A stretch of DNA of 62,839 nucleotides. Origin: a virus. Its lineage: Duplodnaviria > Caudoviricetes. The notes under the pieces are model-generated. The model ran no database searches. It was not told where the DNA came from and saw only the letters and a program-made list of their open reading frames with translations. The position numbers were made by a program, and so were the translations under genes. Shown here piece by piece: positions 25,051 to 53,150 of the stretch. The stretch is from positions 1 to 62,839 of IMG/VR virus record IMGVR_UViG_3300044844_000500. One strand, written 5' to 3'. The number at the start of each line of letters is the position of its first letter. Position 1 is the first letter of the stretch.

Positions 25051-27144
25051 TTACGCCTTTACAGCGCCACCTTCCAGCGCTTTCATGAGTTTGTACATGC
25101 GAGCCGCACCCTTGCGTCGACTGCCATTGCCCGCATTGCGTACCGCCTTGGCCGTGAAGACGAACTCTCCGTCAGACAGCATCGCCGGAATGGAGTCGGA
25201 CGTCCCCGTGCCAGGGCCGTTGATCGGGCCCGTTTTACGCGGGAACTCCGTCATCTTCATCTCGCCGCCGCGTGCCCGCTGTACCGGCTCTTGCCCGTAC
25301 AAGAGAGGGATGCCGTACAGGCCGGCTACGTTGTAGGGTTGCGCCACGCCTTGGGGCATGTTCGTGATGCCCGTAGGCATTGACACTGGGGCAGCCGTCT
25401 GCGCCATGCGAGCGTATGCGGGAGTTTCTACAAGAACAGGCCCACGAGGAGCTGGCCCCATCGAGCCCCTGGTCAGCCCGTATCCGTACAAATCCAGCTC
25501 TCGTTGACGGGCTTCAGCGCGTTCTCTCGATTCTTTTTCCTGCTCAGAAATCTTGTACAAGGGTTCTGGCTCGTCCGCAGGCTTCTTAAATGCCCCACCG
25601 GCCGCTGCAACACCAAGGCCGGCCCCCAACAACGGCCCGTACCGCCGCAACAACCCAGCATCCGGTGGCAGCCCAGGACGATCCGGCGAAAGATATTCGC
25701 CGTACAAGTCCTTGGCGCGTTGGATCAACCCCGGTGCCGAAGCGCCGGGCAGCGCCCCGGTGCCGATCGCCGCCTGCTGTGAGGGCGATACGGTATCCAT
25801 CCAACTCAAGTCCCCTTGAGGGGTGGTGGGCGGCGCAAACTGGCTGGGCGGCGGTGTAAAGGGCAATCCACCCGGTTCGCCAGCGGCCGGCAACATGCCT
25901 GCTGCCGTGCCGATCCGTTCGACGCCGCCGGCAGGGCCTGTCGCACCCGGAGCACCCGTTCCGGTAACTGCCGAAGCGGTGGGCGACGCAGGGATGGCAC
26001 CTTCGGCACCGGGCAGCGGCCCTGTGCCAATCGCCGCTTCCTGAGAAGCCGAGGTGACAGGCTGTTGTGGGCCTTGAAGGCCTTGCAACGCACCCGCAGT
26101 CAACCCGGCCATCGCACCCGAACGAAGTGCTTCACCCGGTTTCATGCCCATCACCAAGCCTGCGCCAGTGCCCAAAGCAGCCGTGGTCAGACCGGTGTTG
26201 AGCGCCGAACCGGCGGCTCCTGGCAAGTAGCTGCTCAAGCCCTTCAACGGGCTGCCAAGGCCTCCAAAGTCGCCGCCACCGCCGATGTAGCCTAGCGCAC
26301 CCGAGACCAGCGCATCCTTGATGTTTCCACCCGCTAATAGCGTGGTTCCAGCACCGGCAACCGCCGCCGCAGCCGGCGCGCTCATCAAGCCAAGACCCAT
26401 GGCCCCTGGTCCGAGGACCGTGGCCAACGCAACCGTAGCCAGGACTCGGCCAACCGGCGACTGAACGACCTTTTTGGCGATGTTTACAACGCTTTTGACG
26501 ACTCCGGTTACTGCCCCAACAACGCCTTTGACCAGTTTCTTGATAAAGTATTCAGGCAGCCCTGTATCGGGGTTGATCGTCCCCGATCCACCCATGCGCT
26601 TGAGCATCTGCGCCTCTTCCGGCGTGATGTGCGCAAGCATTGTGTCGCCATGTCGGCCTTTGGACGCCAGATACTGCGCCATGTCCGCTAGGCCACCCTG
26701 GGCCATGGCCATAGGAGCAACAGGCTCGGCCATTGCCGGGCCCATGGTTGCCGCTTGTTCTGCCCCTTGGATTTGACGTGATTTCAGCTCGTTGAGCACC
26801 GCAAGAACGGCGCTCAAAAACTCCATGTCAAACTCTTCGGGCAGGTCCTCTGGATCCACCCCTTCTGCGATCACCTCTTGCCGCCGTTTTTTGTACTCTC
26901 GCGGGCTTTGTAAAAGGTACTCAAAGAGCCCAATGGCGGCGTCTATCTCGTTCGGGGTAAGTTCCATCCCCTGCGAGTTGCGGTCAATCTCGGCACGCAG
27001 ATCTGTAACTGCCTGGGGATCCAACATCCCCATAGCCGTCGTTGCGGCATCATAAGCATCATAGCTGCTGACCGCCTGCGGGGCACGACCGTTGCCTTGC
27101 ATGGCTTCCATTCCGGGAAGCGACATGATGCCTTCATTTTCCAT
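25051..27144 (-). CDS. Ejection/internal virion protein with Gly-rich hydrophobic segments
   Basis: GRHGDT..TINPDTGLPEY and C-terminal GPGTGTSDSIPAMLSDGEFV modules. Confidence 0.75.
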   Translation of the reverse strand: MENEGIMSLPGMEAMQGNGRAPQAVSSYDAYDAATTAMGMLDPQAVTDLRAEIDRNSQGMELTPNEIDAAIGLFEYLLQSPREYKKRRQEVIAEGVDPEDLPEEFDMEFLSAVLAVLNELKSRQIQGAEQAATMGPAMAEPVAPMAMAQGGLADMAQYLASKGRHGDTMLAHITPEEAQMLKRMGGSGTINPDTGLPEYFIKKLVKGVVGAVTGVVKSVVNIAKKVVQSPVGRVLATVALATVLGPGAMGLGLMSAPAAAAVAGAGTTLLAGGNIKDALVSGALGYIGGGGDFGGLGSPLKGLSSYLPGAAGSALNTGLTTAALGTGAGLVMGMKPGEALRSGAMAGLTAGALQGLQGPQQPVTSASQEAAIGTGPLPGAEGAIPASPTASAVTGTGAPGATGPAGGVERIGTAAGMLPAAGEPGGLPFTPPPSQFAPPTTPQGDLSWMDTVSPSQQAAIGTGALPGASAPGLIQRAKDLYGEYLSPDRPGLPPDAGLLRRYGPLLGAGLGVAAAGGAFKKPADEPEPLYKISEQEKESRERAEARQRELDLYGYGLTRGSMGPAPRGPVLVETPAYARMAQTAAPVSMPTGITNMPQGVAQPYNVAGLYGIPLLYGQEPVQRARGGEMKMTEFPRKTGPINGPGTGTSDSIPAMLSDGEFVFTAKAVRNAGNGSRRKGAARMYKLMKALEGGAVKA

Positions 27145-27149
27145 GACAT

Positions 27150-27214: not shown

Positions 27215-27218
27215 TGAG

Positions 27219-27248
27219 ATTATCCGATAGGTCATAGGGCCCTGTCCA
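27219..27248 (-). promoter_or_regulatory. Putative promoter of ejection-protein operon
   Basis: TGGACA-18 nt-GATAAT directly upstream of the structured leader. Confidence 0.45.
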
Positions 27249-27585: not shown

Positions 27586-28299
27586 TCACATCGCCGATAT
27601 GAAGTTGATGGTGAGAATCACCGAGGAGATGGCCGGGCGTGTTGGTGTGGTGTCCGCCCCATAGTGCTCCAAGAACACGTCTGTGCTGCTCGCCCACCAC
27701 GCGATCTCCAGATAATTGACGCTTGGGTCACTAACCGTGAAGATGCCTGTGACCGTTGGAACCACATGAGACCAGGTAGTGGCGTCCTTGCGGGCGGCGA
27801 TGTCAAAGCGCGTTCGACTGTCCGGAAAATTAACGCCTGTGTCTTTGGCCCAAATTTCTACTTCTTGGGTGGCATTGCTGCGGTTGGAGACCTGTAGCCT
27901 GAAGGTCACAAGGTACTGCCCCGAGCACGGGACATAGATCTTACTGTTGTCCACCACGCGGATGCCATTGGCAGCGGCGACCACGTCGTAAGTCAAAAGC
28001 TCTTCTGTGGTCGTGCTGGTCAGGTCTTGATCCAACACAGAAAGCAACATCGCGTGCGGCAAGATGATGCCGTTAGAGAGCTGAAACCCGCGTACCCCAC
28101 CAGCAAACCCGCCGCCTGCACCGCTGCCCGCGGCCATCCAAGTGGATGCCCCAGCTTTGTCGTCGCTGGTAGTGGGCGTGTAGGTGCTATTTAGTTGCAG
28201 GATGACCTGCTCAAGTGAGCGCACCAACTGATTGAATTGTTCTGGGCTGTAGGCCGGCGTGATCGCATTCGGCAACCGAACATTGGTGATCTTGCTCAT
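27586..28299 (-). CDS. Tail-associated protein with jelly-roll/C1q-like C-terminus
   Basis: Follows nozzle gene; SKIYVPCSGQYLVTFRLQ. Confidence 0.65.
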   Translation of the reverse strand: MSKITNVRLPNAITPAYSPEQFNQLVRSLEQVILQLNSTYTPTTSDDKAGASTWMAAGSGAGGGFAGGVRGFQLSNGIILPHAMLLSVLDQDLTSTTTEELLTYDVVAAANGIRVVDNSKIYVPCSGQYLVTFRLQVSNRSNATQEVEIWAKDTGVNFPDSRTRFDIAARKDATTWSHVVPTVTGIFTVSDPSVNYLEIAWWASSTDVFLEHYGADTTPTRPAISSVILTINFISAM

Positions 28300-30146
28300 C
28301 GCAAGCCATCCGGCTGGATGTCGACCCGCATCGTGCCAAATCGCCAGTTCGTATCAATCTCGTCGCTTTCAATCCGTAGACTGATTTGACGTCCGCGTGC
28401 GCGAGTGTCGACTTTCTCCGTGCTTGAGGTAATGACGTAAGGGTCCAGCGAACTGGGCACCGCAGAGGACTGCGGGTAGGGTCTCAGCAACAGGTGAACC
28501 GTCAGATTCCCGTCTTGGTTCTTAAAGTCAGGGATGAAACGCTGCATGAACATCATCTGATCGCCATCGCCAATGTCAAAGTACCCAGACTTGATGTACG
28601 CCGTCATTGGTTGACCGTTAGCATTTTTGCCGGTTTCTTGGTTAAAGATCACAGATCTCCCTGCGGTAAGGCCATAGATGGTGGAAATGGTAGCCGCATT
28701 ACTATCCGGATCGTAGAAGCTGGCAAGTGGTCTCTCAAATACACCAGAGTCCCGCCATGCGGTTCGAGGCATCGTCCCTACAGACCAAACATTCTCCAAG
28801 TAGTTGTAGGTCACGTAGCGATCGATATAGTCATTGTCGTCGGCGCAATACCACCAAGTCACTTCGTTAAATTTGGTGTTGACACCAGCCGCTACTTTAT
28901 AGCCTTGTACGGGGTTGAACGCATCAAAGACGTAGTCCTGCACGGTGCAAGGCAGCTTCTTGGTCACCCCATCAAACACAAAGAAAGCGTCTTTGGACAT
29001 CCAGTAGGCAACACCGTTGACGTCCACCGCTGCGTGCGGTCCCACCACCCCACAGTTAGCACCCAACTGGGTGAAACCAAACGTGTAGGGCGGCCCGATA
29101 AACTGCATGCCATGCAGCGCCGTGTCGGTCCAAATTAATATCTGACCGCGAGAACGTGCTGCCGAAATGATGAGGTTGCCGTCGGTTAGACGTTGGCCGC
29201 CCGCGGTGTTTGTGGCGGTCGACTCAAAGACGTTGATGTCTTCTTGATTAGAAAACCGGACAAACATTGGATCCTGCGTAGCAGGCACACCGATGGTCCC
29301 TTCTGTCCCAAAGCAGACCAAATGCCTGTCAGGCGTTGAGACTAAGGCGAATTTGCTCTTGGTCGGAGCGCCTGCAATCGGGGTGGCTCGCGTACTTAGT
29401 CCCAACGTGGGATCCCACTCGTAAATCCCGCCATTACACAACTGCAGGATCAGTTTTTGTCCAAATTCGTCAAATTGCCAGACCCGAGAAAACAGTTGTA
29501 AGGCTGCCGTAGCTGGCCGTGCCGTTCCCCAAAAACCTAGTCCATACAGTCCCACTCCCCAACCAAAGTCAAAGAAACTGCGGTCTTGACCTACATTAAT
29601 CTGGAACGTCGCGGTGGCCGTACCAGCTGCCGTGGCGGTGGAAGTCGCATTTACGGGGCAAGTGATGACAAAAGTGTTGGCGGTCAAAACGTCAACAATT
29701 TCATACTCATTATTCAATGTTGCATTAGGAATGCCACCGGGATCCCCCGTTGTGCTGGAAAAGGTGACAAAGTCCCCAACAATGGCCCCATGTGCCGTTG
29801 CATTGACTGTCACGGTAGGCAAGTTGATCGTGGTGTCGAACGTCACCGACTTGGTCGTGCGGATTGGCGTGATATCTGCCCAATCTCCGCCGTAGTACGC
29901 ATATACCTTACGGTTAGTGCCGATTGCAGCGTAAGGAGCACCGCTTAGGGTATTCCAAGTAAAAATCTCACTGACGGATCCGACAAAGTACGTCAATCCA
30001 CCATCAAGGGGCTCCCAGCCACCGATCTTTTCAGGCAGCCCGTACTGGAAGCGTACGTGGTCGCTGTCAGTCCAGCCGCCCTCCGCCCCGTATTCGGTGT
30101 TTTGCTTGTCAATTCCAGGCTTTAAGAACAGTCGTAACAGCGGCAT
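28296..30146 (-). CDS. Tail nozzle / packaged-DNA stabilisation protein (P22 gp10 / T7 gp12-like)
   Basis: 616 aa beta-propeller-like; VRFSNQED, LIWTD, RARGRQ, WRFG. Confidence 0.8.
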   Translation of the reverse strand: MPLLRLFLKPGIDKQNTEYGAEGGWTDSDHVRFQYGLPEKIGGWEPLDGGLTYFVGSVSEIFTWNTLSGAPYAAIGTNRKVYAYYGGDWADITPIRTTKSVTFDTTINLPTVTVNATAHGAIVGDFVTFSSTTGDPGGIPNATLNNEYEIVDVLTANTFVITCPVNATSTATAAGTATATFQINVGQDRSFFDFGWGVGLYGLGFWGTARPATAALQLFSRVWQFDEFGQKLILQLCNGGIYEWDPTLGLSTRATPIAGAPTKSKFALVSTPDRHLVCFGTEGTIGVPATQDPMFVRFSNQEDINVFESTATNTAGGQRLTDGNLIISAARSRGQILIWTDTALHGMQFIGPPYTFGFTQLGANCGVVGPHAAVDVNGVAYWMSKDAFFVFDGVTKKLPCTVQDYVFDAFNPVQGYKVAAGVNTKFNEVTWWYCADDNDYIDRYVTYNYLENVWSVGTMPRTAWRDSGVFERPLASFYDPDSNAATISTIYGLTAGRSVIFNQETGKNANGQPMTAYIKSGYFDIGDGDQMMFMQRFIPDFKNQDGNLTVHLLLRPYPQSSAVPSSLDPYVITSSTEKVDTRARGRQISLRIESDEIDTNWRFGTMRVDIQPDGLR

Positions 30147-31016: not shown

Positions 31017-31229
31017 TTACATAACCCCACCCGACGCCGCAGGCATCGTGGTCACCTGAATATGCACGCTTTGCTGGAGATTGAGCGGCTGGCCGCAGTC
31101 GGAACACGTGTCATTGGCTAGTTCCGAGGCGTCCAGATCGTATCCACATGCCTGACAACAAATCTCAACCGCATGCGTAGGCTCGATCGTGCCGTTCTCA
31201 AGCGTGCGACATACATTCAGAACTCTCAT
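31017..31229 (-). CDS. Zinc-ribbon protein
   Basis: CQACG...CSDCG. Confidence 0.7.
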   Translation of the reverse strand: MRVLNVCRTLENGTIEPTHAVEICCQACGYDLDASELANDTCSDCGQPLNLQQSVHIQVTTMPAASGGVM

Positions 31230-31861
31230 GCCAGTGCCTCCATCGCCGCAGCGTGCAACGAGGCCCGCTGCTCAAGGCCGATTGTGCCTCCGTTGACGCG
31301 CTTTGTCATGCCCTCGACATCTTCTTCATCGGCGAAAAGATTGAGGCCCTTAGACTGCCAAAACCAACCGGCCGATAAGGCAGCGACAACCGGGTCGGTC
31401 AGTCGATCCGGGTCATCCAACAATGCTACTCCAAGCGCCTGACCACACCGACGATAATTGTCACGCCCAGTTAGTTGCTTGAGGCCACGCCCACGGTACT
31501 TCCACCCATCACCGGGTTCCGTGTTGCCCAAATTCTTAGCCCCCCAATCCCCACCGTAAAGAAGGTTGGCGATTCGCTCTTGGTCAGCAGGCTGATCTTT
31601 TGTCCTGCCGTACTTCTTACAGTCTGCCTCACTAATACGGTGTCGTCCAAACATGGCCATTAACGCTTCTACCCGGTAGTTCAGGTTCTCCGTCATGGTG
31701 GACAGCCCTGCAGACTCATGCCCAATTTGCGATAAGAATCCCGCTTGCCGCTGCGGCGTGTCGATGCCGTACAGTTGCATGGCGTCTTGAATAGGCTTCA
31801 AGAACCGCTCCGCGTGTTCCTTTTTAGCGCCAGTACAGATCATCAGTTCTTCAAGAGTCAT
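31226..31861 (-). CDS. Endolysin, glycoside hydrolase family 19
   Basis: QIGHES, ENLNY, GDGWKYRGRGLKQLTGRDNY, SAGWFW, TKRVNGG. Confidence 0.93.
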   Translation of the reverse strand: MTLEELMICTGAKKEHAERFLKPIQDAMQLYGIDTPQRQAGFLSQIGHESAGLSTMTENLNYRVEALMAMFGRHRISEADCKKYGRTKDQPADQERIANLLYGGDWGAKNLGNTEPGDGWKYRGRGLKQLTGRDNYRRCGQALGVALLDDPDRLTDPVVAALSAGWFWQSKGLNLFADEEDVEGMTKRVNGGTIGLEQRASLHAAAMEALA

Positions 31862-43046: not shown

Positions 43047-43628
43047 TTAAGCTCCTTGACCGGCAACACCAGCACTACCGTACAGGTGCTCGTTAATCTT
43101 CACCACAACCACAGCATTGGTGCCAAAAGTGTTGCCTGGAACATCCCACAGGCCAACAATCTTCAGGTTCAATGCGGCCGTTTTGTCAATGGTGGACGAA
43201 TCCAGTTCCATCGTCGAAACGCCCGTGGTCGTGCTACCGCCGGTACCCACAACGTCAGCGTTCATCCCCACTTGAGTCTGAGCAACCGACTCATCTACTT
43301 GGATGATGAACAACTGGTTGGGATCATCAATCACGTCGGCGATGATCTTGCCTTGCGTGATGTTGATCGAACCTGGATAAAAATTCTTCCAAGTCGGCTT
43401 GCCAGTGGTTGGGTCAATGTAATTGCAGCCGTTAAACACACCCACCGCAGCGGTATGGGTTGCAGGTGCAAACTTGACGAGGTAACCGTCATAAACGGTG
43501 ACCAAGTCGCCTTGGTAAATCGCCCCGGACTGGTTATCGGCAATCTCGTATCCGTACTGCTTTTGGCCGCCAGTGGCGGACAGATTGCCGAGGGCACGCA
43601 GACCAAAGGGCTTGTCAACATTAGCCAT
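43047..43628 (-). CDS. Capsid cement/decoration protein
   Basis: MANVDKPFGLR, IYQGDLV, VGVFNGC, DDPN. Confidence 0.7.
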   Translation of the reverse strand: MANVDKPFGLRALGNLSATGGQKQYGYEIADNQSGAIYQGDLVTVYDGYLVKFAPATHTAAVGVFNGCNYIDPTTGKPTWKNFYPGSINITQGKIIADVIDDPNQLFIIQVDESVAQTQVGMNADVVGTGGSTTTGVSTMELDSSTIDKTAALNLKIVGLWDVPGNTFGTNAVVVVKINEHLYGSAGVAGQGA

Positions 43629-43649
43629 TTGATGGTTCCTTCAAAGGGG

Positions 43650-44144
43650 TTACTGGTCTTTCGACCCGCCAAATGAGACTCGAGATCTGCGGGTTGGGCG
43701 TTCGATGACCATGCTCGAATGCGCATTGGCCTTCATCAGCTCATTGTCCGCAGCTTGAAGCTGATCTCCCGCTCGTTGTTGGTAGTACGCGTTTCGTTCC
43801 TGAACTGTCTCTTCGGGGATACGGGCCAGAAGAAGGGCACCGACGCTAATCACGCCAGCATGCCGACCATCTTCAGGACTGGATGAGTGAAAGTCAGGGT
43901 ATTCATCGGCACGTACCAGTTCGTAGCCTTCGCGAAGACGGCCTGCGACGTTGGTACGGTCTTGAATGCCTGCTGATTCAGCTCGAATCCAGCGGTGTTT
44001 GTATCCGGGAGGCGGCTCAGGTGCATCAAGCCGCGAAGGTGCCTGCCACGGACGACGTCGCGTAATCTTCGCGCGAAGCTCTGCGTCTCGCGAAGTACGG
44101 TTAAGAGCTGGAGCAGCTCCTACTACAGGTTTAACGTCACTCAT
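43650..44144 (-). CDS. Head-module protein
   Basis: W..PS.LDAP.PPPGYKHRWIR, REGYELV, LLLARIP. Confidence 0.75.
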   Translation of the reverse strand: MSDVKPVVGAAPALNRTSRDAELRAKITRRRPWQAPSRLDAPEPPPGYKHRWIRAESAGIQDRTNVAGRLREGYELVRADEYPDFHSSSPEDGRHAGVISVGALLLARIPEETVQERNAYYQQRAGDQLQAADNELMKANAHSSMVIERPTRRSRVSFGGSKDQ

Positions 44145-44146
44145 GA

Positions 44147-45076
44147 TCACTCCTTCACGTACTTGGCGTATTCCTCAAGCGGAACACCCAGTTTTTTGGC
44201 AATGGCCACCTGACTTGGAGTCAGACGTACCGTGCGGCGTGCAGCTTGGTTGATCCCGGAAGACCGGGAAGCGGGTGCGACCGGCTGCACGTTACGCGCC
44301 GCCCCGTTTTGCGCACCGGAAAACTTCTTTGGAAAAGCGTCCCGGATACGTCGATCCAATTCATGATAGTACTCGTCAGAGCTGGCGTCAAACCCCTCCG
44401 CCTCAATTAGCTGACGGTGTATGCCCCACGCAGCATGTGTCATGGCCGTATCGCGCCCATACCACGGGTTGCGCTCCGCCCAATCCTCTACCTTTGGATC
44501 GACCTGACGTTGCTGCTGTGCAGGCTGTTGATATGCCACCTGCTGCGCGGCTTGCTGCTGTTGCGCTACAAGATTCTGCTCATAGGCTTGGCGCTGCGCA
44601 TTTTGCGCCTGGACAGAGGCCTGCTCCATTGTCAGCGAAGTCAGGCGCTGTTGTGCCTCTGTTTCCGTGTCAACGTCGCCTTCTTCGCGCGCTTTGCGAA
44701 TGATCTGCTTAAGCGCCATGACCTGCGTTTCAATACGGCCCGTAGCCTCGGCCACGCGCTGCTGATCCGTGTTCAGGTACTGGTATTCAAGCTGCTGGGC
44801 CCGCGCCTGTACGTTTCGTGCGTAATCAAGTGCCGCCTGCTCGCGTCGCTGCGTCTCCCGCAGCCGCGCCGTCAGTTTGTCGATCCGTTTTTTGACGTTT
44901 TCGCTGTATTGATCCAGCTCGCCTCGGTCACCGTGATCACTTTGATCGCCGCTGGGGGCAACAACCTCCGGGGGCTGTGGCTTGTCAATGACTTCTGCCT
45001 GCCCGTCCTCACTAAGCCTGACGGTGGCGGGTGCTTCGTCCTCTCCAATCTTAAACTCCAACTGCTCACCACTCAT
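44147..45076 (-). CDS. Capsid scaffolding protein
   Basis: Acidic N-terminus, coiled coil, C-terminal VRLTPSQVAIAKKLGVPLEEYAK. Confidence 0.85.
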   Translation of the reverse strand: MSGEQLEFKIGEDEAPATVRLSEDGQAEVIDKPQPPEVVAPSGDQSDHGDRGELDQYSENVKKRIDKLTARLRETQRREQAALDYARNVQARAQQLEYQYLNTDQQRVAEATGRIETQVMALKQIIRKAREEGDVDTETEAQQRLTSLTMEQASVQAQNAQRQAYEQNLVAQQQQAAQQVAYQQPAQQQRQVDPKVEDWAERNPWYGRDTAMTHAAWGIHRQLIEAEGFDASSDEYYHELDRRIRDAFPKKFSGAQNGAARNVQPVAPASRSSGINQAARRTVRLTPSQVAIAKKLGVPLEEYAKYVKE

Positions 45077-45087
45077 GATGCTCTCCT

Positions 45088-45561
45088 TTACATGTGCAGA
45101 ATGTTTTCTGGATCACTGACCACGCCCAAAACCTCGTCGTCATTGATCAAACGGATCTCCCCACCATCGATGGGAATGCGTGCGCCTGCATATCGGCCGA
45201 AAATGATCCAGTCCCCCTCCTTGCACCACGCGCCGGTGGGAAATTTGGACTCATCGTTGTACGCCAGACTGCCAACCTTCAATACGTAGCCGCAAACGGT
45301 CGCAAGATTGGATTTGCGCTGAGTCTCCTCGGCCAAAACAATTCCGCCCTTGCTTTTTTCCGCGCCACGATAAGGAAGAATCGCGATCCGCCAACCTGTA
45401 GGCGTTGGGATACGATCCAGTACAGTCTCATGAAGCTTTGACGGGTCAAAGCCGTCCTCGGTATACGAGTCCTCAAGCCTTGGTCCCTTGTTCTCAGCCT
45501 CTTCGCGCCACTTGCGCTCCAATGCCGTCAAGCTTTCGTCTGCTACAGCTTCCATCTGCAT
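45088..45561 (-). CDS. groES: GroES/Cpn10-like co-chaperonin
   Basis: PTGWRI, KSKGGIVL, WCKEGDWIIFGRYAG, RLINDDEVL. Confidence 0.9.
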   Translation of the reverse strand: MQMEAVADESLTALERKWREEAENKGPRLEDSYTEDGFDPSKLHETVLDRIPTPTGWRIAILPYRGAEKSKGGIVLAEETQRKSNLATVCGYVLKVGSLAYNDESKFPTGAWCKEGDWIIFGRYAGARIPIDGGEIRLINDDEVLGVVSDPENILHM

Positions 45562-45819: not shown

Positions 45820-46092
45820 CTAGTATATGCGAACCGGGCGATTGCCGTCCTTCTTTTTGACAATCTGCACAGCCTTCTGCACTCCTTTGGGCGTCGAAAT
45901 CATCGTTCCGCCCTTGGCCATCTTGCGCGCCTTGCCCGCCTTCTCGTATGCAATAGCCGCCGCCTGCTTGGTGGCCGCTTTTACGCTCTTGGGCTTGCTC
46001 GTACCAAGCTTGCCCGACTCCTTGTACGATCGGACCATCTCACCAATGTTGGAACTAATGGTCTTTTGACTTGAACCACGTTTAAGCGGCAT
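45820..46092 (-). CDS. Small basic protein
   Basis: MPLKRGSSQKTISSNI...KQAAAIAY..A...MAKGG; ATG 46092. Confidence 0.8.
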   Translation of the reverse strand: MPLKRGSSQKTISSNIGEMVRSYKESGKLGTSKPKSVKAATKQAAAIAYEKAGKARKMAKGGTMISTPKGVQKAVQIVKKKDGNRPVRIY

Positions 46093-48409
46093 TTCTAGCT
46101 CCTTGAGATTGCATGGTCTTGACTTCCTGCAAGCGCAGGCGTTGCTGGTTGAGCTGATTGTTCTGCTGAAGCTTTTGTTGGTCAAGTCCCAAGCGCTGTT
46201 GCTCCATCTGAATGCGTTGTTGATCGGCCTGCGCACGCTGTTGAATCTCCATGCGTTTCAGTTCGATCAACGGATCCTCTCCACCCTCGCCAGAAAGCTT
46301 GCCTTGCAGGTCTTTCATCTCCTGCATGTACGTCGCAACCTTGATGGCGACCATGCCTTCCTTCTGGATTGGCGAAACCATGCGGTCAGGATCAGTGCCA
46401 TACGTCTTGAAGAGGTCTGCTTCCACATCCTCCTCCGCTTTCAGCCGGATGTGCTCCAAAATATGCTTTTGCAACTCCATTGCCGACATCGGATTGGACT
46501 GCAAGAGCGGTGACATGCCCATCATCAGGTGTGCGGCGATGTGTGCATCATGTTGCTGGCCTGCAAACGCCTTCAACTTCATGCCGTTCAGTACATCGCT
46601 GTTCTCGGCCGCCGGATCACGGGGCATATTCGTGTTTTGGGGCATCAAAATGCCGTCGATATCCCGAATGTTGAGCGCCGCGTACATCCGATAGTACGCC
46701 TCGTACATGTTGTGCATGTTCGGCGCGCTCTGGGCAAGCTGCAACTGCATCTGAGCAAGCTGAATACGCTGCGCAGTGCTGAAAATGTTGGGATCGGCCA
46801 CCGGCTGGACCGAAACCATGCGACTGAAGTCCGCCTTTTTGATTCGGCGGCTTGCTCCAGGCACATCGTAGGGGTATTCGTCCGGCAAATAGTACGCAAA
46901 GCCCTCAAAAAGCAGTCTGAACTCGAGCGTTTGCGCATAATGAAGCCGTTTGTGGATGCTCGACATCACCATCGAGCCCCGTTCCAGGAGCGCAAGCGTC
47001 GTTCCGACCTGCGCGTACTGGTTTCCATCCCCCACTTGCATGTCCGCTGTGCTCGAAAGCCGCTTTCCAGCGTCCACCAAGAAGCCCAACAGCGCAAAAA
47101 GCACTTGACTGGGCTCTTTGTAGGGCAGCGGCATGAGCGACGCGCTCAATTCCGCCCCACCCGCATCAATATCGCGCCATTCCCCAGGCTGGATCGGGTC
47201 CGAATCGTCCGCGATCCGCGCGCCTTTGGCCTTGAACCCCGCCGGCAGGTTCGCCAGCGTGCCCGCATCGATCAATTGGCGCAGCGCACTGGTCGCTGCC
47301 TTGGACAAACCACCAATCAAGTGCACAAAACCAAGGCCATAGGCCCCCGGACCCTCAACCAAGACGTAGTGAACGAAGTAGTTCCGACGATTTTTTTGCT
47401 CGTCGTTCTCTTTCCAGTTCCTCCGAATGCCTATAACCTGCAACGAATCCTCGGCCAAGGTCACCACATAGGGCAACTTCACCCCAGTTGGGTTGCCATC
47501 TTCGTCCTTGTCCTCAAAACCAGGGATGTCTAGGTCAACCAACTGCTCAAGCAAGAACACTTCGCCCACGTCATCGGTCGGCTGCACGCCCACAACCTTG
47601 TCCGTTGCCGCTTGGATGGGGCTCGGATCGGCTGGCGCGGCCGACGTTTCCACCGGGATGTCCAAGTACTCACCCGCAAGCACCCGCTTTTTGTACTCGT
47701 TCGAATCCATCGCGATGCGATGCGTCAGTCGCGGGCACTGGGACACGACACTTGAGCCGTTATACGGGATGTACACGTCATCGGCCAAGCAAAGCTTGGA
47801 CACCATGCGCTTTAGCTGATGGTCGTAGTAGACCTTCTTGAACGTCGAGCCGCCGTAGCCGGTGTAAAAGAGGAGCTGGTCGAACTCGGGCGTGTACTCT
47901 TCCATCACGGTCGTGATTTGGTAGTTCATAAAGTCCTGCACGCGACCTGCCTGCTGGTACTTCTCGACCGTTTCTTTGCCCATGATTTGCGTGCGCACAG
48001 GGCCACCCGCCGGCAGGAGCTCTTTCAAAGCCTGCGCCTGGAACTGGATGATCGCTTCCATCAGCATGGGATGAGCGACGCCCGCCGCGCCCCGGAAGGG
48101 CTTCGTGCGCTCTTCCATCCGCAAGCCCAAAAGATCAAGGCCCTTGGCGAACATGTTTTCCCAGTCGGACCGCGAACCCTTGTCCGCTTCGAACATCGCC
48201 GATACGTCGATCGAGATCTTGGCCAAAGCCTCCGGCTCGATCACACCCGCGAGGTTGGCGTAGAAGTCAACCTCCTCAGCTTCGTCGCTTCCGATTTCGA
48301 TTGTCGCGCCGCCGTCTTCGTCGATCTCGATTTCAATGTCAACTGGCTCGTCTTCGAGCGCGATGATCCCGAGTGACGGGGCAGGATTTACAGACTTGTC
48401 GATAGGCAT
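46082..48409 (-). CDS. Portal protein
   Basis: 775 aa; GSTFKKVYYD, YGLGFVHLIGG, LIDAGTLANLPAGFK; Gln-rich coiled-coil barrel. Confidence 0.9.
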   Translation of the reverse strand: MPIDKSVNPAPSLGIIALEDEPVDIEIEIDEDGGATIEIGSDEAEEVDFYANLAGVIEPEALAKISIDVSAMFEADKGSRSDWENMFAKGLDLLGLRMEERTKPFRGAAGVAHPMLMEAIIQFQAQALKELLPAGGPVRTQIMGKETVEKYQQAGRVQDFMNYQITTVMEEYTPEFDQLLFYTGYGGSTFKKVYYDHQLKRMVSKLCLADDVYIPYNGSSVVSQCPRLTHRIAMDSNEYKKRVLAGEYLDIPVETSAAPADPSPIQAATDKVVGVQPTDDVGEVFLLEQLVDLDIPGFEDKDEDGNPTGVKLPYVVTLAEDSLQVIGIRRNWKENDEQKNRRNYFVHYVLVEGPGAYGLGFVHLIGGLSKAATSALRQLIDAGTLANLPAGFKAKGARIADDSDPIQPGEWRDIDAGGAELSASLMPLPYKEPSQVLFALLGFLVDAGKRLSSTADMQVGDGNQYAQVGTTLALLERGSMVMSSIHKRLHYAQTLEFRLLFEGFAYYLPDEYPYDVPGASRRIKKADFSRMVSVQPVADPNIFSTAQRIQLAQMQLQLAQSAPNMHNMYEAYYRMYAALNIRDIDGILMPQNTNMPRDPAAENSDVLNGMKLKAFAGQQHDAHIAAHLMMGMSPLLQSNPMSAMELQKHILEHIRLKAEEDVEADLFKTYGTDPDRMVSPIQKEGMVAIKVATYMQEMKDLQGKLSGEGGEDPLIELKRMEIQQRAQADQQRIQMEQQRLGLDQQKLQQNNQLNQQRLRLQEVKTMQSQGARNAA

Positions 48410-48869: not shown

Positions 48870-51800
48870 TCACGCGGCCTTCAGTTTAGCAAGCTGGCCC
48901 TTGGCCGTCGAGGTGTCTACAAGACCCCCTTGAGCGTAGCCTCTTTGAAGTTGATCTCCAAGCTTTGACATCCACGTGTCCAAGATGTCTTGTGGCATCT
49001 CGTTTTCAACCGCCATCTGCCTCAATTCATCCAAAGAGTAAAGGCCTGGAGGAATGGTCTTAGAGAACCCTGGCAGGCGCTGGCCTTCGGTCACACTGAC
49101 CAGTCCAGCGTTTTGAAGATCACCGATCGATTCCCAATTGCCGCTTCTTACGAAGTCCTGCACGAAAGGCAAGTACTTTTCCTTGGGCGCGGCATTGCTC
49201 TTTCCCTTGATCTGAGTGATCTGGCTGAGATCGTTTTTTCCCTCCATAAGCTCAACCACTCGCTCTGCAAAAGCTTGGCCACGGAGCCCTTCTGCCCGCG
49301 CCTGTTTTGCTGCTTGATCCTGAGAAATACCTGGAGTAGAACCGACCTCGATCGTCACGTGGGGTTCGCCTTTCTCATCAACCAAAGAGTAGACTTTTGC
49401 TCGTCCGCTTTTGATGGCTTCCCAGCCGCCATGGCCGTAACTGGGATTACCAAACCTTTCGGACGCCTCTATCCAGTCGGGATGTCCTTTTGGAGGCTCG
49501 TACCCTCGAACAGAGTGCCCCATGGCCTCAGACTCGGCGACAAAGGACCCTGGACGATTGAGCTCAATCCAACGGAATTTTTCTGGGTATTCTTTGTAAA
49601 CCGGAAGCCCCTCCCTGGCTGACGCGCGAGCTGCGTTTGCTTTTGCAATCAGCTCCTGGTCGTATTCAAATGTCCTGCGAACTGCTTGGTCCATTGACAC
49701 CTTGTTCAACTGTTCGGGACGAATGCGCCCGCTGGCAAGGTCTTCCCGAAGAACATCGACCACGTGGTCAAACCCGAAGTTCCTCATAAGACCTCTGGCG
49801 GTGTAGACCTGGGTCTCGTCTGGCAGCTTGTAAATCCAAGGGTTCTGAATTGCCAAAAGCTCATCATCCCCCTCGTTAAACGACTTGTCGTTTTTGTAAA
49901 ACGACGCAGGCCTGGGATCAATCATGCGGTCCGTCAAATCTTCCCATGCTTGGCCTTGAGCGGTCTGCGACACAGGTGCTGGAGGCATGCCGGCCGTCGT
50001 GCGCTTTTGCGCAAGAGACATTCCTGGGGTCAGTTGTAAATTTTTGGCAACAATCCCTTGTTCCGCGAGCAGTCGAACGGGATCGTCCACCGTGCCCATT
50101 TCTTTTTTGACATAGTTCGTCAGGTTTCGGTCGATCCACTGGTTTAAGGCAACATTCTTCGGCTCGTCCTCAAGCCTTCTGATTGCATTGTCCACCTGCC
50201 ATTGGGAGGCATAGGGCCTTGGACCGGGCTTGTTTGAGATTCCCGCAATATCTTCCAACAGGGATTTTTCTTCCGCTGTCATTTCGTCGCTTTTGAATGC
50301 GGCCAATTGCTCTTCGACAGGGCCTTTGAGCCAGTTCCCTCCCTTGGGCTTGATGACATACGACGCTCCTGCGGGGCCCAAGGCACGGTTGTACTGCTGG
50401 AAGTCCTCGGCCAACATTCGCGCTGCCTCGCCCGCTTTCTCCGCGCCACGGGCCGCTGCACGCACCGGTGCCGCCGGGTTGACAAGGCTGCTTCCGATGT
50501 CGGCGGCTGAGTACAGGGCGCGCTGCGTGGGGTCCGTAGGCGGCTCAGGCCGCACGCCAAGGTCCGTCATTTTTTGCTTGATCCACTCACTGCCCATGAC
50601 CGGGCGCTCTGAGCCCAGCCCAGCCGGCGTCAAGAGCATGTTCGCCAAGTCAACCGGCGCACCGACGAGGTTGTACGGCATGTTCGCCACGCCCTGCGCA
50701 ACTGCGCGACTCAATGCTTCGTTTTCTTCTTGAGTCGCGCGTCGGCGCGTGCGCTGCTGCAAAGGTTTGCCGGACCGGAACGGATCGTCGTATTGCGGCC
50801 GTGCTTCTTTCTCACTTTCTTCGGAGGACTTTTTTACCTCACCGCCTTCCTCAAACCGGCGCTTGGTCAGGGAGCCTTTGGTAAGTGAAGGTTTTTCCAA
50901 GGTCGGGGCGTTGAACGTGTCACGAGACAGGCCACGGGCCATGTTCTCCGCCTCTCGCGCCTTTAGCTTGTACGTTCGTGCAAGCTCCATGAAGTCGTCT
51001 TTGGCCGTGTTCTTGAGTGCCTTGGGCGATGTGCCTTTGCTCGTGGTCAACGACTCGACTTCCATCGCCATGCCCTTACCAAAGCCCTCACTGCTCTTGG
51101 CTTCCAACGGCCGCTTCGTGATCTTTTTGACCGTCTTTGTAGACGGCGTTTCACTGTAGCGCGTCTCACTCATGCCCGGCATTTCCTGGAGCATGTTGCG
51201 CGACTCGCTGTAGTACTCCGGATCGTCCCCGTACAGGTTGTATTCGTTCACGCGCTGCAACAAGGCGTCCGTGCTCACGTCCCCGCCGCGCGCAAATGCG
51301 AACACCGGGCGCGGCATCATCGGCGAACGAATCATGTTGCCCAGCCGGTCCGTCATGTAGCCCATGTTGCGCTGACCACCCAGCGGCTGCGGAGCGAGTG
51401 ACGGGTTCTGCTGCAAAAGGTCCACGGCCGTCGGGCCTTGGTAAGTCATAACTGGGATGTAGGGCCGCGTGCCCGGCATACCCCGAGCAACAGGCTTTGG
51501 GGGAACAGGCGTAGGCGCGGGTGCTGGCGCGGGCGGCAAAATGGGTGAAGGAACCGTCGGCTGGCGCGGCGTCTCCTGGCCCGGGAGCCGTGGCCCAACA
51601 AAATCTGGCGGCAACGGTGGATAGTCCGTCCCAGGGCCTGATAGCGGTGGCGTCGAGGGCTTCCATCCCTTGGACACGGCCAACGCATCGGCCGACGTGA
51701 TTCGCCCGTCCCCATTGGTGTCGTACTGCAAATCCGGCGTGATCTTTTTGACCGCCATCTGCAAAACCCGCTCCGCCAATGCCTGATTAGGATTAGCCCC

Positions 51801-53150
51801 TTTAGGTGGCTGTGCTACAGGCGGCTGTGACTGCTTTGGCGGCAGCGGCGGTCCTACGAAATCCGAGGGCGGGGACTGGTTTGGTTGGGGCAAGAAAATC
51901 GGTGCGCCCATGTTCGGCGACGAGTTAACCGGCGGGGTATTGGTCGTCGGGCTCGGAAGCGGTTGATTACTTACCGGGCTGTTGTCCCACCACTGGCCAC
52001 CGGAGTAAAACTTCTGACCGTCTGGAGATTTAATCGGGGCATACTCGCTTTCGCGACCGCCCACGCCCGAAATTGGCTTAATAAGTGCGGGCCCTCCACG
52101 AACGATCAGATCCTCCCTACGAGAGTCTGGCGCTGGCTGGGTAGCCGCTGGGGGTGCAACGGTGGGGGCTTGACGCGTGGGTTGTGACGGCGTTGTCGCT
52201 CCACGGATCAAGGACCCAAAGTTAAAGGTCGGCACCGGAGAGACGCCCGTGGGAATCGGCGATCCGCTTAGCCCCTTTTGCCCAGCCGCGCCTACGCCCG
52301 GCGTCTCGACCAACGGCGATACGGGGGATCGGGGGGTTGTTGATGTTGCTGCTGCGGCCGATGGCGGTGTTGCTGACGCAGGTGTTGCCGCTGCCGATGT
52401 TGCCGCCGGTGGTGGCAGATTTGAGGCCGCGATGACAGCCGCCACCTGATTGGAGATTGGCCTTAACACAGAAGCAAAATACTCCGGCAACCCCGTCTTC
52501 GGATTGATCGTCCCCGCCCCGCCCATGCCCTTGAGCATGTCCCGCGCCGAAGGACTTAAATACGCCAGCTTCGTGTCCCCGTTGCGCCCGGCTTTCGCCA
52601 CACGCCTCAACATATCCTTTGCCTTCACCTCGCCTCCCTTCGCCATAAAGGCACTGGCCACGGACAACGAGCCCAGGTTGTATTTGCTCGGATCACTGAC
52701 CACGTCAATCGCAAGCCCTCGCTGTGCAGCCGCTTCCTGCGCCCGCCGGGCCGCCGCCTTCTGAAACTCCACCACCGCCTGCGGGTCAAACGACACCTCC
52801 GGCTTGGCAACCGTGAACGGCGCTAACTCCGGCGCGGCCGGCCCAGCATAGTCCTCGGTCCGTGGCCCTTCATTCCAGGCGTTGATCGACTTTTCGTATT
52901 CCCCATACGCTTTTTCGTAAGGGGTATACACGTCCCGGTTGTACGCCTCTACCGCCCGATCGTACGCCGCCAACCTTTCAAGATCCGCCTGCTTCCCCTC
53001 CAAATACTCCCGGTCCGCCTTGGACAAGAAAGGCTGCTGGCTCGGGTTCGCTATCCCCCCGAACGCAAACCGCTGAACAGGCATCTCACTGTTCAGGTCG
53101 TTAGGCACCGATACATTTTCAGCGCCCTGGAAAGGCAGGTAATTAGGCAT
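48870..53150 (-). CDS. 1426-aa multidomain virion-associated protein with C-terminal PcfJ-like domain
   Basis: Five xxGG tags, GRNGDT module, Pro-rich region, DTNGDGRITSAD loop, E..AMGHSV.GY...YSL.D..G.PHVTIEV...QIKGK.N. Confidence 0.8.
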   Translation of the reverse strand: MPNYLPFQGAENVSVPNDLNSEMPVQRFAFGGIANPSQQPFLSKADREYLEGKQADLERLAAYDRAVEAYNRDVYTPYEKAYGEYEKSINAWNEGPRTEDYAGPAAPELAPFTVAKPEVSFDPQAVVEFQKAAARRAQEAAAQRGLAIDVVSDPSKYNLGSLSVASAFMAKGGEVKAKDMLRRVAKAGRNGDTKLAYLSPSARDMLKGMGGAGTINPKTGLPEYFASVLRPISNQVAAVIAASNLPPPAATSAAATPASATPPSAAAATSTTPRSPVSPLVETPGVGAAGQKGLSGSPIPTGVSPVPTFNFGSLIRGATTPSQPTRQAPTVAPPAATQPAPDSRREDLIVRGGPALIKPISGVGGRESEYAPIKSPDGQKFYSGGQWWDNSPVSNQPLPSPTTNTPPVNSSPNMGAPIFLPQPNQSPPSDFVGPPLPPKQSQPPVAQPPKGANPNQALAERVLQMAVKKITPDLQYDTNGDGRITSADALAVSKGWKPSTPPLSGPGTDYPPLPPDFVGPRLPGQETPRQPTVPSPILPPAPAPAPTPVPPKPVARGMPGTRPYIPVMTYQGPTAVDLLQQNPSLAPQPLGGQRNMGYMTDRLGNMIRSPMMPRPVFAFARGGDVSTDALLQRVNEYNLYGDDPEYYSESRNMLQEMPGMSETRYSETPSTKTVKKITKRPLEAKSSEGFGKGMAMEVESLTTSKGTSPKALKNTAKDDFMELARTYKLKAREAENMARGLSRDTFNAPTLEKPSLTKGSLTKRRFEEGGEVKKSSEESEKEARPQYDDPFRSGKPLQQRTRRRATQEENEALSRAVAQGVANMPYNLVGAPVDLANMLLTPAGLGSERPVMGSEWIKQKMTDLGVRPEPPTDPTQRALYSAADIGSSLVNPAAPVRAAARGAEKAGEAARMLAEDFQQYNRALGPAGASYVIKPKGGNWLKGPVEEQLAAFKSDEMTAEEKSLLEDIAGISNKPGPRPYASQWQVDNAIRRLEDEPKNVALNQWIDRNLTNYVKKEMGTVDDPVRLLAEQGIVAKNLQLTPGMSLAQKRTTAGMPPAPVSQTAQGQAWEDLTDRMIDPRPASFYKNDKSFNEGDDELLAIQNPWIYKLPDETQVYTARGLMRNFGFDHVVDVLREDLASGRIRPEQLNKVSMDQAVRRTFEYDQELIAKANAARASAREGLPVYKEYPEKFRWIELNRPGSFVAESEAMGHSVRGYEPPKGHPDWIEASERFGNPSYGHGGWEAIKSGRAKVYSLVDEKGEPHVTIEVGSTPGISQDQAAKQARAEGLRGQAFAERVVELMEGKNDLSQITQIKGKSNAAPKEKYLPFVQDFVRSGNWESIGDLQNAGLVSVTEGQRLPGFSKTIPPGLYSLDELRQMAVENEMPQDILDTWMSKLGDQLQRGYAQGGLVDTSTAKGQLAKLKAA

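Follow-up and report, generated by a model that had tools for sequence, protein, structure and literature searches.

Two conserved cassettes behind a recurrent GG tag in putative ejection proteins of a podovirus-like phage

Three short segments in two large phage genes, each lying a few residues behind a tag of the form [F/Y/M/R]-A-x-G-G, raise the question of whether they are copies of one small mobile module that marks proteins for ejection, as an earlier note on this DNA had proposed, and of what part the tag itself plays. The window, that is, the whole stretch of DNA analysed, is a podovirus-like phage genome of ~62.8 kb, kin of the metagenome-assembled Phage DSL-LC04; among the subset of its ORFs that was scanned, no prohead protease was recognised. 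The three segments, two copies of a motif called here A and one of a motif called B, do exist, at coordinates that differ from those first noted by 1–4 nt. All are encoded on the minus strand, the plus-strand translation at the coordinates first noted being meaningless, and both motifs stand behind an AxGG tag (Table 1).

Table 1. Coordinates in the window of the two proteins, their tags and cassettes, and the flanking genes
Feature	Residues	Position	Strand	Remark
P0002		25051..27144	(-)	697 aa; ORF and translation
Tag 1 of P0002, MAQGG	147-151	26692..26706	(-)	G150 and G151 almost invariant (88 relatives aligned)
Motif A copy 1, P0002	163-200	26545..26658	(-)	profile E 4e-28
Tag 2 of P0002, RARGG	623-627	25264..25278	(-)	G626 invariant, G627 nearly so
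Motif B cassette, P0002	640-697	25054..25227	(-)	profile E 6.3e-19
Motif B core SDSIPAMLSDGEFV, P0002	649-662	25159-25200	(-)	
P0003		48870..53150	(-)	1426 aa
Tag 1 of P0003, FAFGG	28-32	53055..53069	(-)	kept in P0365, a 71%-identical relative
Tag 2 of P0003, MAKGG	169-173	52632..52646	(-)	just ahead of motif A
Motif A copy 2, P0003	188-225	52476..52589	(-)	profile E 1.1e-21
Tag 3 of P0003, FARGG	619-623	51282..51296	(-)	aligned with tags in 4/11 homologs
Tag 4 of P0003, FEEGG	766-770	50841..50855	(-)	domain junction; kept in 10/11 aligned homologs (our own reading)
PcfJ-like domain of P0003	911-1373	49032..50420	(-)	tblastn to DSL-LC04; PF14284 in homologs
Tag 5 of P0003, YAQGG	1405-1409	48924..48938	(-)	kept in 10/11 aligned homologs; K-R-G-G in the eleventh
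Portal		46082-48409		other flank of P0003
Large terminase		53185-54702		P0003 lies between terminase and portal

To judge from its sequence, P0002 is probably a tape-measure-like internal (ejection) protein that is injected with the DNA. It contains no Pfam tape-measure domain, and it is syntenic with a DSL-LC04 protein annotated 'tail tape measure protein'. From the N to the C terminus it consists of a helical domain, a tag, motif A (11 aa behind that tag), hydrophobic glycine-rich helices, a low-complexity region, a second tag, motif B and C-terminal helices, with residues 20–135 modelled by AF2 at pLDDT >90 and helices predicted over residues 201–356. Its motif B cassette is composed of a glycine-rich lead-in, the SDSIPAMLSDGEFV core, two helices (665–671 and 676–692, AF2 pLDDT ~91) and a terminal LEGG. 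P0003, in which 14 aa separate the tag MAKGG from the second copy of motif A, appears to be a giant protein of the polyvalent type. Apart from a sub-threshold dockerin match, it has no Pfam match at E ≤ 0.01; its C-terminal part matches a DSL-LC04 protein annotated 'PcfJ-like' (tblastn, E 3e-28), and by hand count PF14284 is present in 18, and PF18760 (ART-PolyVal) in 24, of the 120 P0003 homologs listed. The Atlas lead for this PcfJ-like domain was weak (score 0.77).

The match between the two copies of motif A far exceeds chance: BLASTP of P0002 against P0003 yields a single significant HSP (37/78 identities, E 3e-15), no other falling below E 1, which bears out the earlier description of the two proteins as otherwise unrelated. 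Motif A is a very large family without a model in Pfam, NCBIfam or PHROGs, none of which gave a match; its matches in the PDB were spurious, mostly to designed proteins, and there was no usable named Atlas cluster. Among 1.84 billion representatives, it was found in 5024 clusters at E ≤ 1e-3 and in 1628 at E ≤ 1e-10, and 1472 of 1507 scored candidates (length range 383–1220 aa) belong to it. The motif is 37 aa long in 304 of 310 instances (37–38 aa in the window), with the consensus G-R-x-G-D-T-x-L-A-H-x-x-P-x-E-A-x-x-L-x-x-x-G-G-x-G-x-x-N-P-x-T-G-L-P-E-F/Y, and conservation across 108 diverse instances reaches 99% for D, 98% for G and for L, 89% for R, 85% for H, 83% for P and 82% for E. Copy 1 is near the family consensus (median identity 81% to 304 family instances); copy 2 is a divergent member, its identity to copy 1 (67.6%) ranking 49th among 304 instances, and it carries Tyr and Ala in place of the His and Glu whose loss had been noted from the sequence.

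In keeping with the ejection role proposed in the earlier note, the carriers of motif A belong to protein classes believed to be packaged and ejected: tape-measure-like ejection proteins and, sporadically, polyvalent proteins. Among the 120 PcfJ-like relatives of P0003, 3 have motif A and none has motif B. Fusions to ART-PolyVal were found, as were fusions to Phage_Mu_F, SLT and PG_binding_1, one each among 70 proteins, and gp46 of Venkman, a cultured short-tailed Methylophilales phage, contains the motif as well. In an architecture sample made up of the best-scoring 150 of the 5024 clusters together with close relatives, the counts of which are skewed toward P0002-like proteins, 41 of 150 proteins scanned have two copies of motif A, and motif B is also present in 98 of the 148 motif A representatives listed. 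Motif A is a discrete module recurring in otherwise unrelated proteins predicted to belong to the virion.

Motif B is a common cassette, already catalogued and characteristic of the C-terminal region of tape-measure proteins, the type to which it had been assigned from its appearance. The copy in P0002 matches 17 PHROG families, 11 of them named tape measure, over internal profile stretches with E 7e-13 to 1e-7 (phrog_23013, 6090, 5448, 3547, 25241, 17300 and others), and the tape-measure chains 8zdo_S and 8rk3_A (JBD30, Douge). In the PHROG tape-measure families the match is limited to the cassette, ~40–60 aa, the rest of P0002 being unmatched, and the PHROG libraries give no function of its own for it. 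Motif B is present in 93 of 93 long tape-measure proteins scanned, in 1–4 copies each; PF10145 occurs in 41 of the 94 long motif B proteins listed (hand count).

Both motifs lie behind the tag at a fixed spacing. Of 167 testable A instances, 94 have a strict tag ahead of them, 75 of these at a distance of 15 or 18 aa; of 148 B instances in tape-measure proteins, 81 do, 69 of them at a distance of 10 aa. The chance expectation is 0.07–0.11 strict tags per 45-aa window. Tags are conserved islands where modules meet. The 120 polyvalent homologs contain 315 of them, versus 51.6 ± 7.5 in shuffles, a six-fold enrichment, and extra domains of homologs are inserted exactly behind the tags aligned with P0003 residues 766 and 1405. 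Most of the aligned homologs that keep tag 4 have an additional block of ~100–350 residues right behind it, which P0003 does not have. Behind tag 5 of P0003 there is a 17-aa C-terminal tail, two aligned homologs have further domains beyond this position, and in 44 of the 120 homologs a tag lies within the last ~50 aa. In the PcfJ-like protein of DSL-LC04 three tags lie in the N-terminal part, one of which, by eye, is in a similar sequence setting, and motif A is absent throughout the protein.

A and B appear to be two distinct cassettes, not a single one; they would not be interchangeable copies, and what they have in common is a context and perhaps a remote origin. The earlier view, in which the two are homologous variants of a single small mobile module behind the tag, we consider doubtful. 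When independently built alignments (108 A, 119 B) were compared by hhalign, the register first read by eye was recovered (DTxLAHinPxE against DSIPAmLSxGE), and a low-threshold realignment extended co-linearly to 47 columns, in which iNPxTGLpEf faces iNxgxxpxfa; however, the score was 15.6 (probability 6%, P 0.006), a value that 7 of 200 column shuffles attained, and the reversed B profile scored 15.35, so that profile–profile similarity is at noise level and homology between A and B is not demonstrated. The B profile scores 42% of the 108 genuine A segments higher than the 95th percentile of shuffled ones, but the A profile does so for only 10% of the 119 B segments, and the p-values of such segment scoring are inflated because the instances are mutually related. 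A hybrid that is B-type in its first half and A-type in its second exists (P0272, residues 2279–2323, E 9.6e-4 among 119 segments), the only one among 362 proteins scanned, and the terminal B variant of P0139 starts with D-D-T-R-L. The upstream tag is common to A and B, but its spacing is unequal, and in all 222 proteins that have both, A stands on the N-terminal side of B, the two never being swapped for each other. The structure check with AF2 gave no confident fold for either core; at low confidence, the secondary structure is coil, helix and short hairpin for A, and coil, helix and helix for B. The shared pattern D-[ST]-h-x-A-x-h-[ST]-x-x-E does fit copy 1 and motif B, which are its only two matches in 85,996 six-frame window residues, but it was written after both had been seen, so this count is no test, and the homology read from it was not borne out. 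On the hhalign result, the fixed order and the low-confidence difference in secondary structure, the single homologous module is not supported.

The reading that we favour, with a probability of about 0.55, is that there are two cassettes, that tags are junctions or processing points, and that the cassette following such a tag is a docking element without a globular fold. The tag would join modules and might also serve as a proteolytic break point, and the cassette, taking up its fold only upon binding a partner or oligomerising, would dock or organise the piece that follows: a membrane-inserting body after A, and a hub- or plug-binding C-terminal fragment after B. The conserved cores of A and B have AF2 pLDDT <60, with flanking helices at ~91; this low confidence may reflect failure of the method rather than disorder.

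The order of elements in P0002 residues 623–697, in which a hydrophobic or glycine-rich body is followed by tag, cassette and C-terminal helices, is the same in lambda gpH (gpHC, ~690–853) and T5 pb2 (pb2C, 1128–1219), the C-terminal helices of which bind the tail hub (PMC12617516 for gpH; PMC10038345 for pb2). Residues 731–786 of gpH correspond to tag, diverged B and tag, with K-Y-E where motif B shows S-D-S, and the B profile matches only the second half (753–786); T5 pb2 has no match to this profile, so that calling its segment tag-plus-B-like is pattern matching by eye. Unlike P0002, neither protein has motif A, and P0002 differs further in its setting, a podovirus-like genome with an SU10-type adaptor in which no tail tube or chaperone genes were recognised.

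T5 pb2 is cut 'after R1127' (PMC10038345), directly ahead of the AEGG of R1127-A-E-G-G, the sole tag in the C-terminal 700 residues of the pb2 record, and this only mapped tape-measure cleavage site that we found leaves room for a part played by the tag in processing. R precedes the A of the tag in 14 of 109 tags ahead of motif B, and the variability of this position (F, Y, R, L, K) does not suggest a single protease specificity. In lambda gpH the tag FATGG occupies residues 733–737, and a cut before A734 would leave ~79.6 kDa (interpolated); the lambda article estimates gpH* at ~78 kDa and the cut near residue 710, ~20 residues ahead of the tag (PMC12617516). By analogy with the one mapped site, in T5, the tag is possibly a proteolytic break point. 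In the lactococcal Tal lysins (Tuc2009, TP901-1), a glycine-run self-processing site parts the distal enzymatic/anchoring piece from the body; they differ from P0002 and P0003 in protein class and in the sequence of the site.

It is improbable that the cassettes are instead directed at the cell wall, as peptidoglycan-binding elements or a minimal muralytic or metal site acting in the periplasm during DNA delivery. In long tape-measure proteins B co-occurs with what we take, for some of the Pfam accessions, to be SLT, lysozyme and LysM-type domains, and a universal target would fit the extreme conservation across very diverse phages; SLT and PG_binding_1 were also found with A, but wall enzymes are rare alongside it (2/70). 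The T5 paper describes the segment right behind the tag as a metallopeptidase motif with muralytic activity (PMC10038345), and the note in the T5 record cites InterPro IPR000834; yet the canonical form of B has Ser at the position taken by His in T5 and lambda, so a common metal site is not conserved, and the B profile does not reach pb2.

Quite improbable, too, is an autoprocessing unit, with the cassette cleaving its carrier protein at the neighbouring tag. Such a unit would suit the T5 cut, directly before the tag and ahead of the segment that follows, the statement in the lambda gpH paper that its cleavage catalyst is unknown (PMC12617516), and the near-invariant polar residues (D and T/S in both motifs, together with H and E in motif A and with S-D-S and E in motif B). 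These candidate catalytic residues are, however, not kept, as gpH is without S-D-S and copy 2 without H and E, which makes a catalytic role of the cassette unlikely; 37 aa without a confident fold are few for an enzyme, Pfam peptidase families give no match even at E ≤ 10, many tags have no cassette behind them, and a cited 1973 paper, by its title, concerns host involvement in T5 tail protein cleavage. Chance or low-complexity noise in glycine-rich proteins is scarcely credible, for although the proteins carrying the motifs abound in low-complexity stretches of G, A and P and the A-to-B resemblance is at noise level, the A-to-A match, the thousands of motif A members with near-invariant columns and the match of B to curated tape-measure families (best E 7e-13) rule it out for A–A and for B, and it survives for the A–B link only.

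P0003 is like the polyvalent proteins of PMC5512222 in being giant and multi-module, with its gene beside those for portal and terminase, and its homologs share with them PcfJ, ART-PolyVal, SLT and ParB-type domains. Packaging and injection have been suggested for the polyvalent proteins of phages and conjugative elements (Iyer et al. 2017, PMC5512222). The terms 'linker', 'glycine-rich' and 'tape measure' are absent from the text of that article, which therefore seems to describe neither the tag nor motif A. What is new is that the tag precedes both motifs at a fixed spacing, that it is enriched six-fold, and that it stands at domain junctions.

Two distinct conserved cassettes stand at fixed spacing behind AxGG-type junction tags, and the proteins that carry them belong to the tape-measure-like and polyvalent classes. 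The three segments that the earlier note had singled out are all encoded on the minus strand; the plus strand, translated at the coordinates given there, makes no sense. The peptides that the note quoted are contained in P0002, a tape-measure-like protein, and P0003, a polyvalent-type protein: a 37–38-aa segment, motif A, present once in each, and a C-terminal cassette of P0002, motif B (see the table). The two proteins are otherwise unrelated, as the note had held, and a BLASTP comparison yielded a single HSP that consists of the tag and motif A (E 3e-15), with nothing further below E 1. Scored against the profile of the motif A family, the P0002 segment (copy 1) gives an E-value of 4e-28 and the P0003 segment (copy 2) 1.1e-21, with no third match among the six-frame ORFs of at least 40 aa in the window.

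Coordinates of the motifs, their host proteins and the surrounding genes
Feature	Position (nt)	Strand	Remarks
Large terminase	53185-54702	-	followed by P0003, then portal
P0003	48870-53150	-	1426 aa; holds motif A copy 2
Motif A copy 2	52476-52589	-	P0003 residues 188-225; 14 aa after MAKGG
Portal	46082-48409	-	P0003 gene lies between portal and large terminase
Cpn10 (GroES-like) gene	45088-45561	-	Pfam E 4.4e-10; directly downstream of portal gene
Coiled-coil protein gene		-	between Cpn10-like gene and major capsid protein, by gene order
Major capsid protein	42139-43044	-	by gene order
Adaptor, SU10 type	38359-39015	-	PF24175, E 4.5e-28
Fibre-like genes, then lysis region		-	after SU10-type adaptor, by gene order
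Glyco_hydro_19 (class I chitinase-like) protein	31226-31861	-	211 aa; E 1.2e-10
'Virion structural protein'	28296-30146	-	precedes P0002 in gene order
P0002	25051-27144	-	697 aa; holds motif A copy 1 and motif B
Motif A copy 1	26545-26658	-	P0002 residues 163-200; 11 aa after MAQGG
Motif B core	25159-25200	-	P0002 residues 649-662; behind RARGG, residues 623-627
Four unnamed proteins		-	1059, 260, 844 and 1213 aa; after P0002, by gene order
Tag M-A-R-G-G, then F-V	about 20535-20549	-	residues 173-177 of the 844-aa protein (18531-21065); no motif A or B behind

A search of 1.84 billion proteins with a profile of the two window copies returned 5024 representative clusters at E<=1e-3 (1628 at E<=1e-10), and 1472 of 1507 candidates from a word-indexed search, all of one length class, match the motif. 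Counted from its first Gly to the Phe or Tyr at its end, the motif measures 37 aa in 304 of 310 instances and likewise in both window copies, and conservation by column across 108 instances filtered to <=75% identity reaches 99% for D, 98% for G, 98% for L, 89% for R, 85% for H, 83% for P and 82% for E. Copy 2 does lack the His and Glu, as had been remarked, and carries Tyr and Ala in those columns; since these residues also occur there in 6% and 6% of the 108 instances, it is a divergent member of the family and not a non-member. Median identity to the family is 81% for copy 1, which is near the consensus, and 62% for copy 2. Among 304 instances compared with copy 2, copy 1 comes only 49th, so the two are not each other's closest relatives, and a recent duplication between P0002 and P0003 was therefore rejected. 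The 120 matches listed are all named 'hypothetical protein' in their sources. Motif A has no match in Pfam, PHROGs or NCBIfam and no usable one in the named Atlas clusters, and PDB sequences returned spurious rows only, of which the top two are designed proteins, a repeat and a TIM-barrel type. A Pfam hmmscan of all three segments gave 0 families at E<=10, peptidase and binding families and those of the S24/S26 and M14 types included, a result in which the HMMER speed filters may hide very weak matches. Literature searches with the motif strings found no relevant paper, and the cyanophage A4 paper says nothing about the motifs.

The association with the tag is above chance. Of 167 motif A instances that could be tested, 94 have a strict form, [FYMLWH]-A-x-G-G, upstream of them, with a gap to the Asp of 15 or 18 aa in 75 of those, and the window copies match both modes (15 aa in P0002, 18 aa in P0003). 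For motif B the strict tag precedes 81 of 148 instances in tape-measure proteins, 69 of them with a 10-aa gap; the chance expectation is 0.07–0.11 tags per 45-aa window. The gap in P0002 itself, 22 aa from G627 to D650, is unlike this tape-measure spacing, and P0002-type proteins have longer tag-to-B gaps, with a mode of 16. The window holds five tags in P0003, two in P0002 and one more good tag in the 844-aa protein, and 120 polyvalent homologs of P0003 contain 315 tags, compared with 51.6 +/- 7.5 in shuffled sequences, Val being the most frequent residue two positions past the GG. In 12 aligned homologs the tags that line up with P0003 residues 766 and 1405 are kept, and because extra blocks of about a hundred to several hundred residues are inserted in other homologs exactly after these two tags, the tags appear to be junction marks between modules. 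Longer relatives of P0002, such as P0050 and P0103, were seen by eye to carry extra tags around their added segments, and many tags have neither motif behind them. Forty-four of the 120 P0003 homologs (P0364-P0483) end in a tag and a short tail; two conserved tail types recur by eye, one ending A-A and the other E-E-R-P-L, and may represent two further kinds of 'micro-domain behind a tag', beside A and B.

Motif B is of the tape-measure type, as the earlier note had it: it matches its family profile with E 6.3e-19, and the C-terminal 89 aa of P0002 hit 17 PHROG families, of which 11 carry the name tape measure, as well as the tape-measure chains 8zdo_S and 8rk3_A (mycobacteriophage Douge, two copies; Pseudomonas phage JBD30). 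All 93 long proteins collected with the motif contain it, in 1–4 copies each; by our count PF10145 occurs in 41 of the 94 long proteins listed, and further domains include PF20155, PF06791, SLT, lysozyme-type and ADP-ribosyltransferase domains. The names behind PF10145, PF20155, PF01476 and PF00959, and the meaning of IPR000834, follow general usage or the source records. Residues 731-786 of lambda gpH form a diverged cassette in the order tag-cassette-tag, of which the B profile covers only the second half (residues 753-786). The cassette lies outside the resolved parts of the virion structures checked (JBD30, Douge and Ur-lambda), these parts being only the last 33 residues in JBD30, residues 1658-1699 in Douge and residues 818-849 of the lambda tape measure (PMC12617516).

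P0002 matches 0 Pfam and 0 NCBIfam families, hence has no tape-measure domain from either, and among the ORFs scanned its neighbours are large unnamed proteins, without the long-tail pattern that runs from chaperones to distal tail or hub genes. The 'tape measure' annotation in DSL-LC04, a related phage genome listed as metagenome-assembled, probably derives from the cassette alone. The protein so named there (L001; record positions 43137-45416) has motifs A and B; it also contains the sequence Y-A-G-M-D-L-S-S-A-Q-G-T-L-G-G-P-S repeated five-fold in tandem, which P0002 lacks. The window, a contig of 62,839 bases, reads as a single phage genome syntenic with DSL-LC04, with identities of 78% for the terminase, 72% for the portal, 90% for the capsid protein and 74% for the Cpn10-like gene product; the Glyco_hydro_19-matching protein is probably the endolysin. 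Because the ORFs scanned included no recognisable gene for a tail tube, a sheath or a tail chaperone, we infer a podovirus-like genome, and the gene order suggests that P0002 and the genes after it form an internal (ejection) protein module. The SU10-type adaptor likewise suggests that the virion is short-tailed; the DSL-LC04 record, in contrast, calls the P0002 homolog a 'tail tape measure protein'.

P0003 is a single polypeptide made up of several unrelated modules, and its gene lies next to those of the portal and terminase, which is the mark of a polyvalent protein. Its C-terminal domain is PcfJ-like, and this part belongs to a giant phage protein family whose members differ by entire inserted domains; among the matches listed for the 120 homologs we count PF14284 (PcfJ) in 18 and PF18760 (ART-PolyVal) in 24. 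The family corresponds to the proteins that Iyer et al. 2017 (PMC5512222) describe as polyvalent, and by analogy with what is proposed for that class P0003 would be packaged and delivered with the DNA. Residues 476-497 (about nt 51660-51725, minus strand), within a long proline-rich region, form a dockerin-like, calcium-loop-like stretch, with a Dockerin_1 match (Pfam E 0.0083) under the curated cut-off.

The architectures of motif A proteins were taken from the best 150 of the 5024 clusters, a set biased toward P0002-like proteins. Among the 148 representatives listed, 98 have the P0002 architecture, A followed by B near the C-terminus, and 50 have A without B, often in two copies; in all 222 proteins with both motifs A is N-terminal to B, which starts at a median of 60 aa from the C-terminus. 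The A-only proteins include ART-PolyVal fusions and, among 70 proteins scanned, one fusion each to Phage_Mu_F, SLT and PG_binding_1. P0256, a 294-aa carrier with two A copies, has a C-terminus resembling the Phage_Mu_F head-morphogenesis domain; the sole Mu_F match among the 70 is attributed to it, which ties motif A to portal-associated packaged proteins. Only three of the 120 P0003 homologs listed contain motif A, and none contains B. The P0003 counterpart in DSL-LC04 (L003, 'PcfJ-like'; record positions 10344-12821) has three N-terminal tags and lacks motif A, and one of these tags lies in surroundings similar, by eye, to those of the tag ahead of copy 2. Judged from these counts, motif A is sporadic in the P0003 lineage, as one would expect if a mobile module had been acquired, or else lost, behind a tag. 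GenBank phages with the motif are DSL-LC04, two more uncultured genomes and Methylophilales phage Venkman (gp46), for which a short tail in electron microscopy is reported (10.1101/2020.04.27.064238).

The earlier note went on to propose that A and B are one homologous module, and this was not borne out. Alignments built independently for the two motifs, from 108 instances of A and 119 of B, were compared with hhalign, which picks exactly the register suggested in the note, at a score of 15.6 (probability 6%, P 0.006); seven of 200 column shuffles equal that score and the reversed B profile reaches 15.35, so that the comparison is at noise level and the score was rejected as proof of homology. 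Permissive realignment extends the pairing co-linearly to 47 columns with the C-terminal halves matched, and the B profile places 42% of the 108 A segments above the shuffled 95th percentile, against just 10% of the 119 B segments in the opposite direction with the A profile; the p-values of these segment scores are overstated because the instances are mutually related. Two sequences also speak for homology: P0139 is a B variant with an A-like start, and P0272, a 2387-aa metagenome protein with lysozyme and tape-measure Pfam domains, has at residues 2279-2323 a B-type first half followed by an A-type second half (G-G-S-G-x-x-N-P ... P-x-F), the sole hybrid among 362 proteins scanned. Structure prediction (AF2) was run on both motifs, with full-length P0002 and 88 relatives as one input and, as the other, an 80-aa segment containing motif A together with a diverse alignment of 70 rows. 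It drew A as coil, helix and short hairpin and B as coil and two helices; both conserved cores are of low confidence, and the folds are therefore not comparable. Foldseek found nothing in the PDB for the full P0002 model at E<=1e-3, and a predicted complex of three motif A segments (score 0.15, mark 0.42) was counted neither for nor against self-association. Homology of A and B is thus not shown, and a remote common origin appears unlikely.

A possible function for the tags comes from processed tape-measure proteins. T5 pb2 is cut after R1127, between a segment of hydrophobic residues and what is termed a 'metallopeptidase motif' (main text, PMC10038345), and in the T5 record the residues next after R1127 are A-E-G-G, the sole tag within the C-terminal 700 residues, which places this one mapped cut directly before a tag. 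Arg precedes the tag Ala in 14 of 109 tags ahead of motif B. For lambda gpH, the Ur-lambda paper calls the site and the catalyst of cleavage unknown and gives about 78 kDa for gpH* (PMC12617516); were the cut to fall before A734, the interpolated mass of the remaining piece would be about 79.6 kDa. The B profile does not detect T5 pb2, and the connection between tag and cleavage is for that reason one that we infer, from one mapped site and one compatible estimate, and hold to be rather doubtful. No other mapped tape-measure cleavage site was found in the literature searched, including the accessible text of the P1, Sf11 and Cluster O papers. A self-cleaving unit, which the earlier note had considered, would keep its catalytic residues in all functional members; lambda gpH lacks S-D-S, and copy 2 the H and E.

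We propose, with a probability of roughly one in five, that [F/Y/M/R]-A-x-G-G tags are programmed break points at which tape-measure proteins, and polyvalent proteins that are injected, come apart into pieces with separate work to do, motifs A and B being conserved handles at the new N-termini that would dock the pieces in the virion or position them in the cell envelope. In the broader mechanism put forward, the tag would act as a hinge or break point, and the cassette would be short and become structured only when bound to a partner or within an oligomer, which would fit its extreme conservation beside hypervariable flanks and the low AF2 confidence. Motif B and the following helices (P0002 residues 624-697) would correspond to T5 pb2C and lambda gpHC, the part that remains docked within the exit channel. 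In P0002 motif A would stand at the head of the membrane-inserting body (helices 201-356), and in P0003 at the head of the central part.

Few parts of tailed phages are understood as poorly as their ejection and tape-measure proteins. Motif A, which is nearly unchanged in sequence across more than 5000 protein clusters and lacks a family entry, is a target for family definition and structure determination, and the tag rule would aid annotators of short-tailed phages, whose P0002-type proteins are now called 'tape measure' from a 40-aa cassette. The rule also offers a concrete and cheap test of an old question, the site and catalyst of lambda gpH cleavage as posed in PMC12617516. If true, break-point tags would explain this long-unmapped cleavage, with a predicted new N-terminus at A734, just before T-G-G, and would provide a sequence rule for the cut sites of phage polyproteins.
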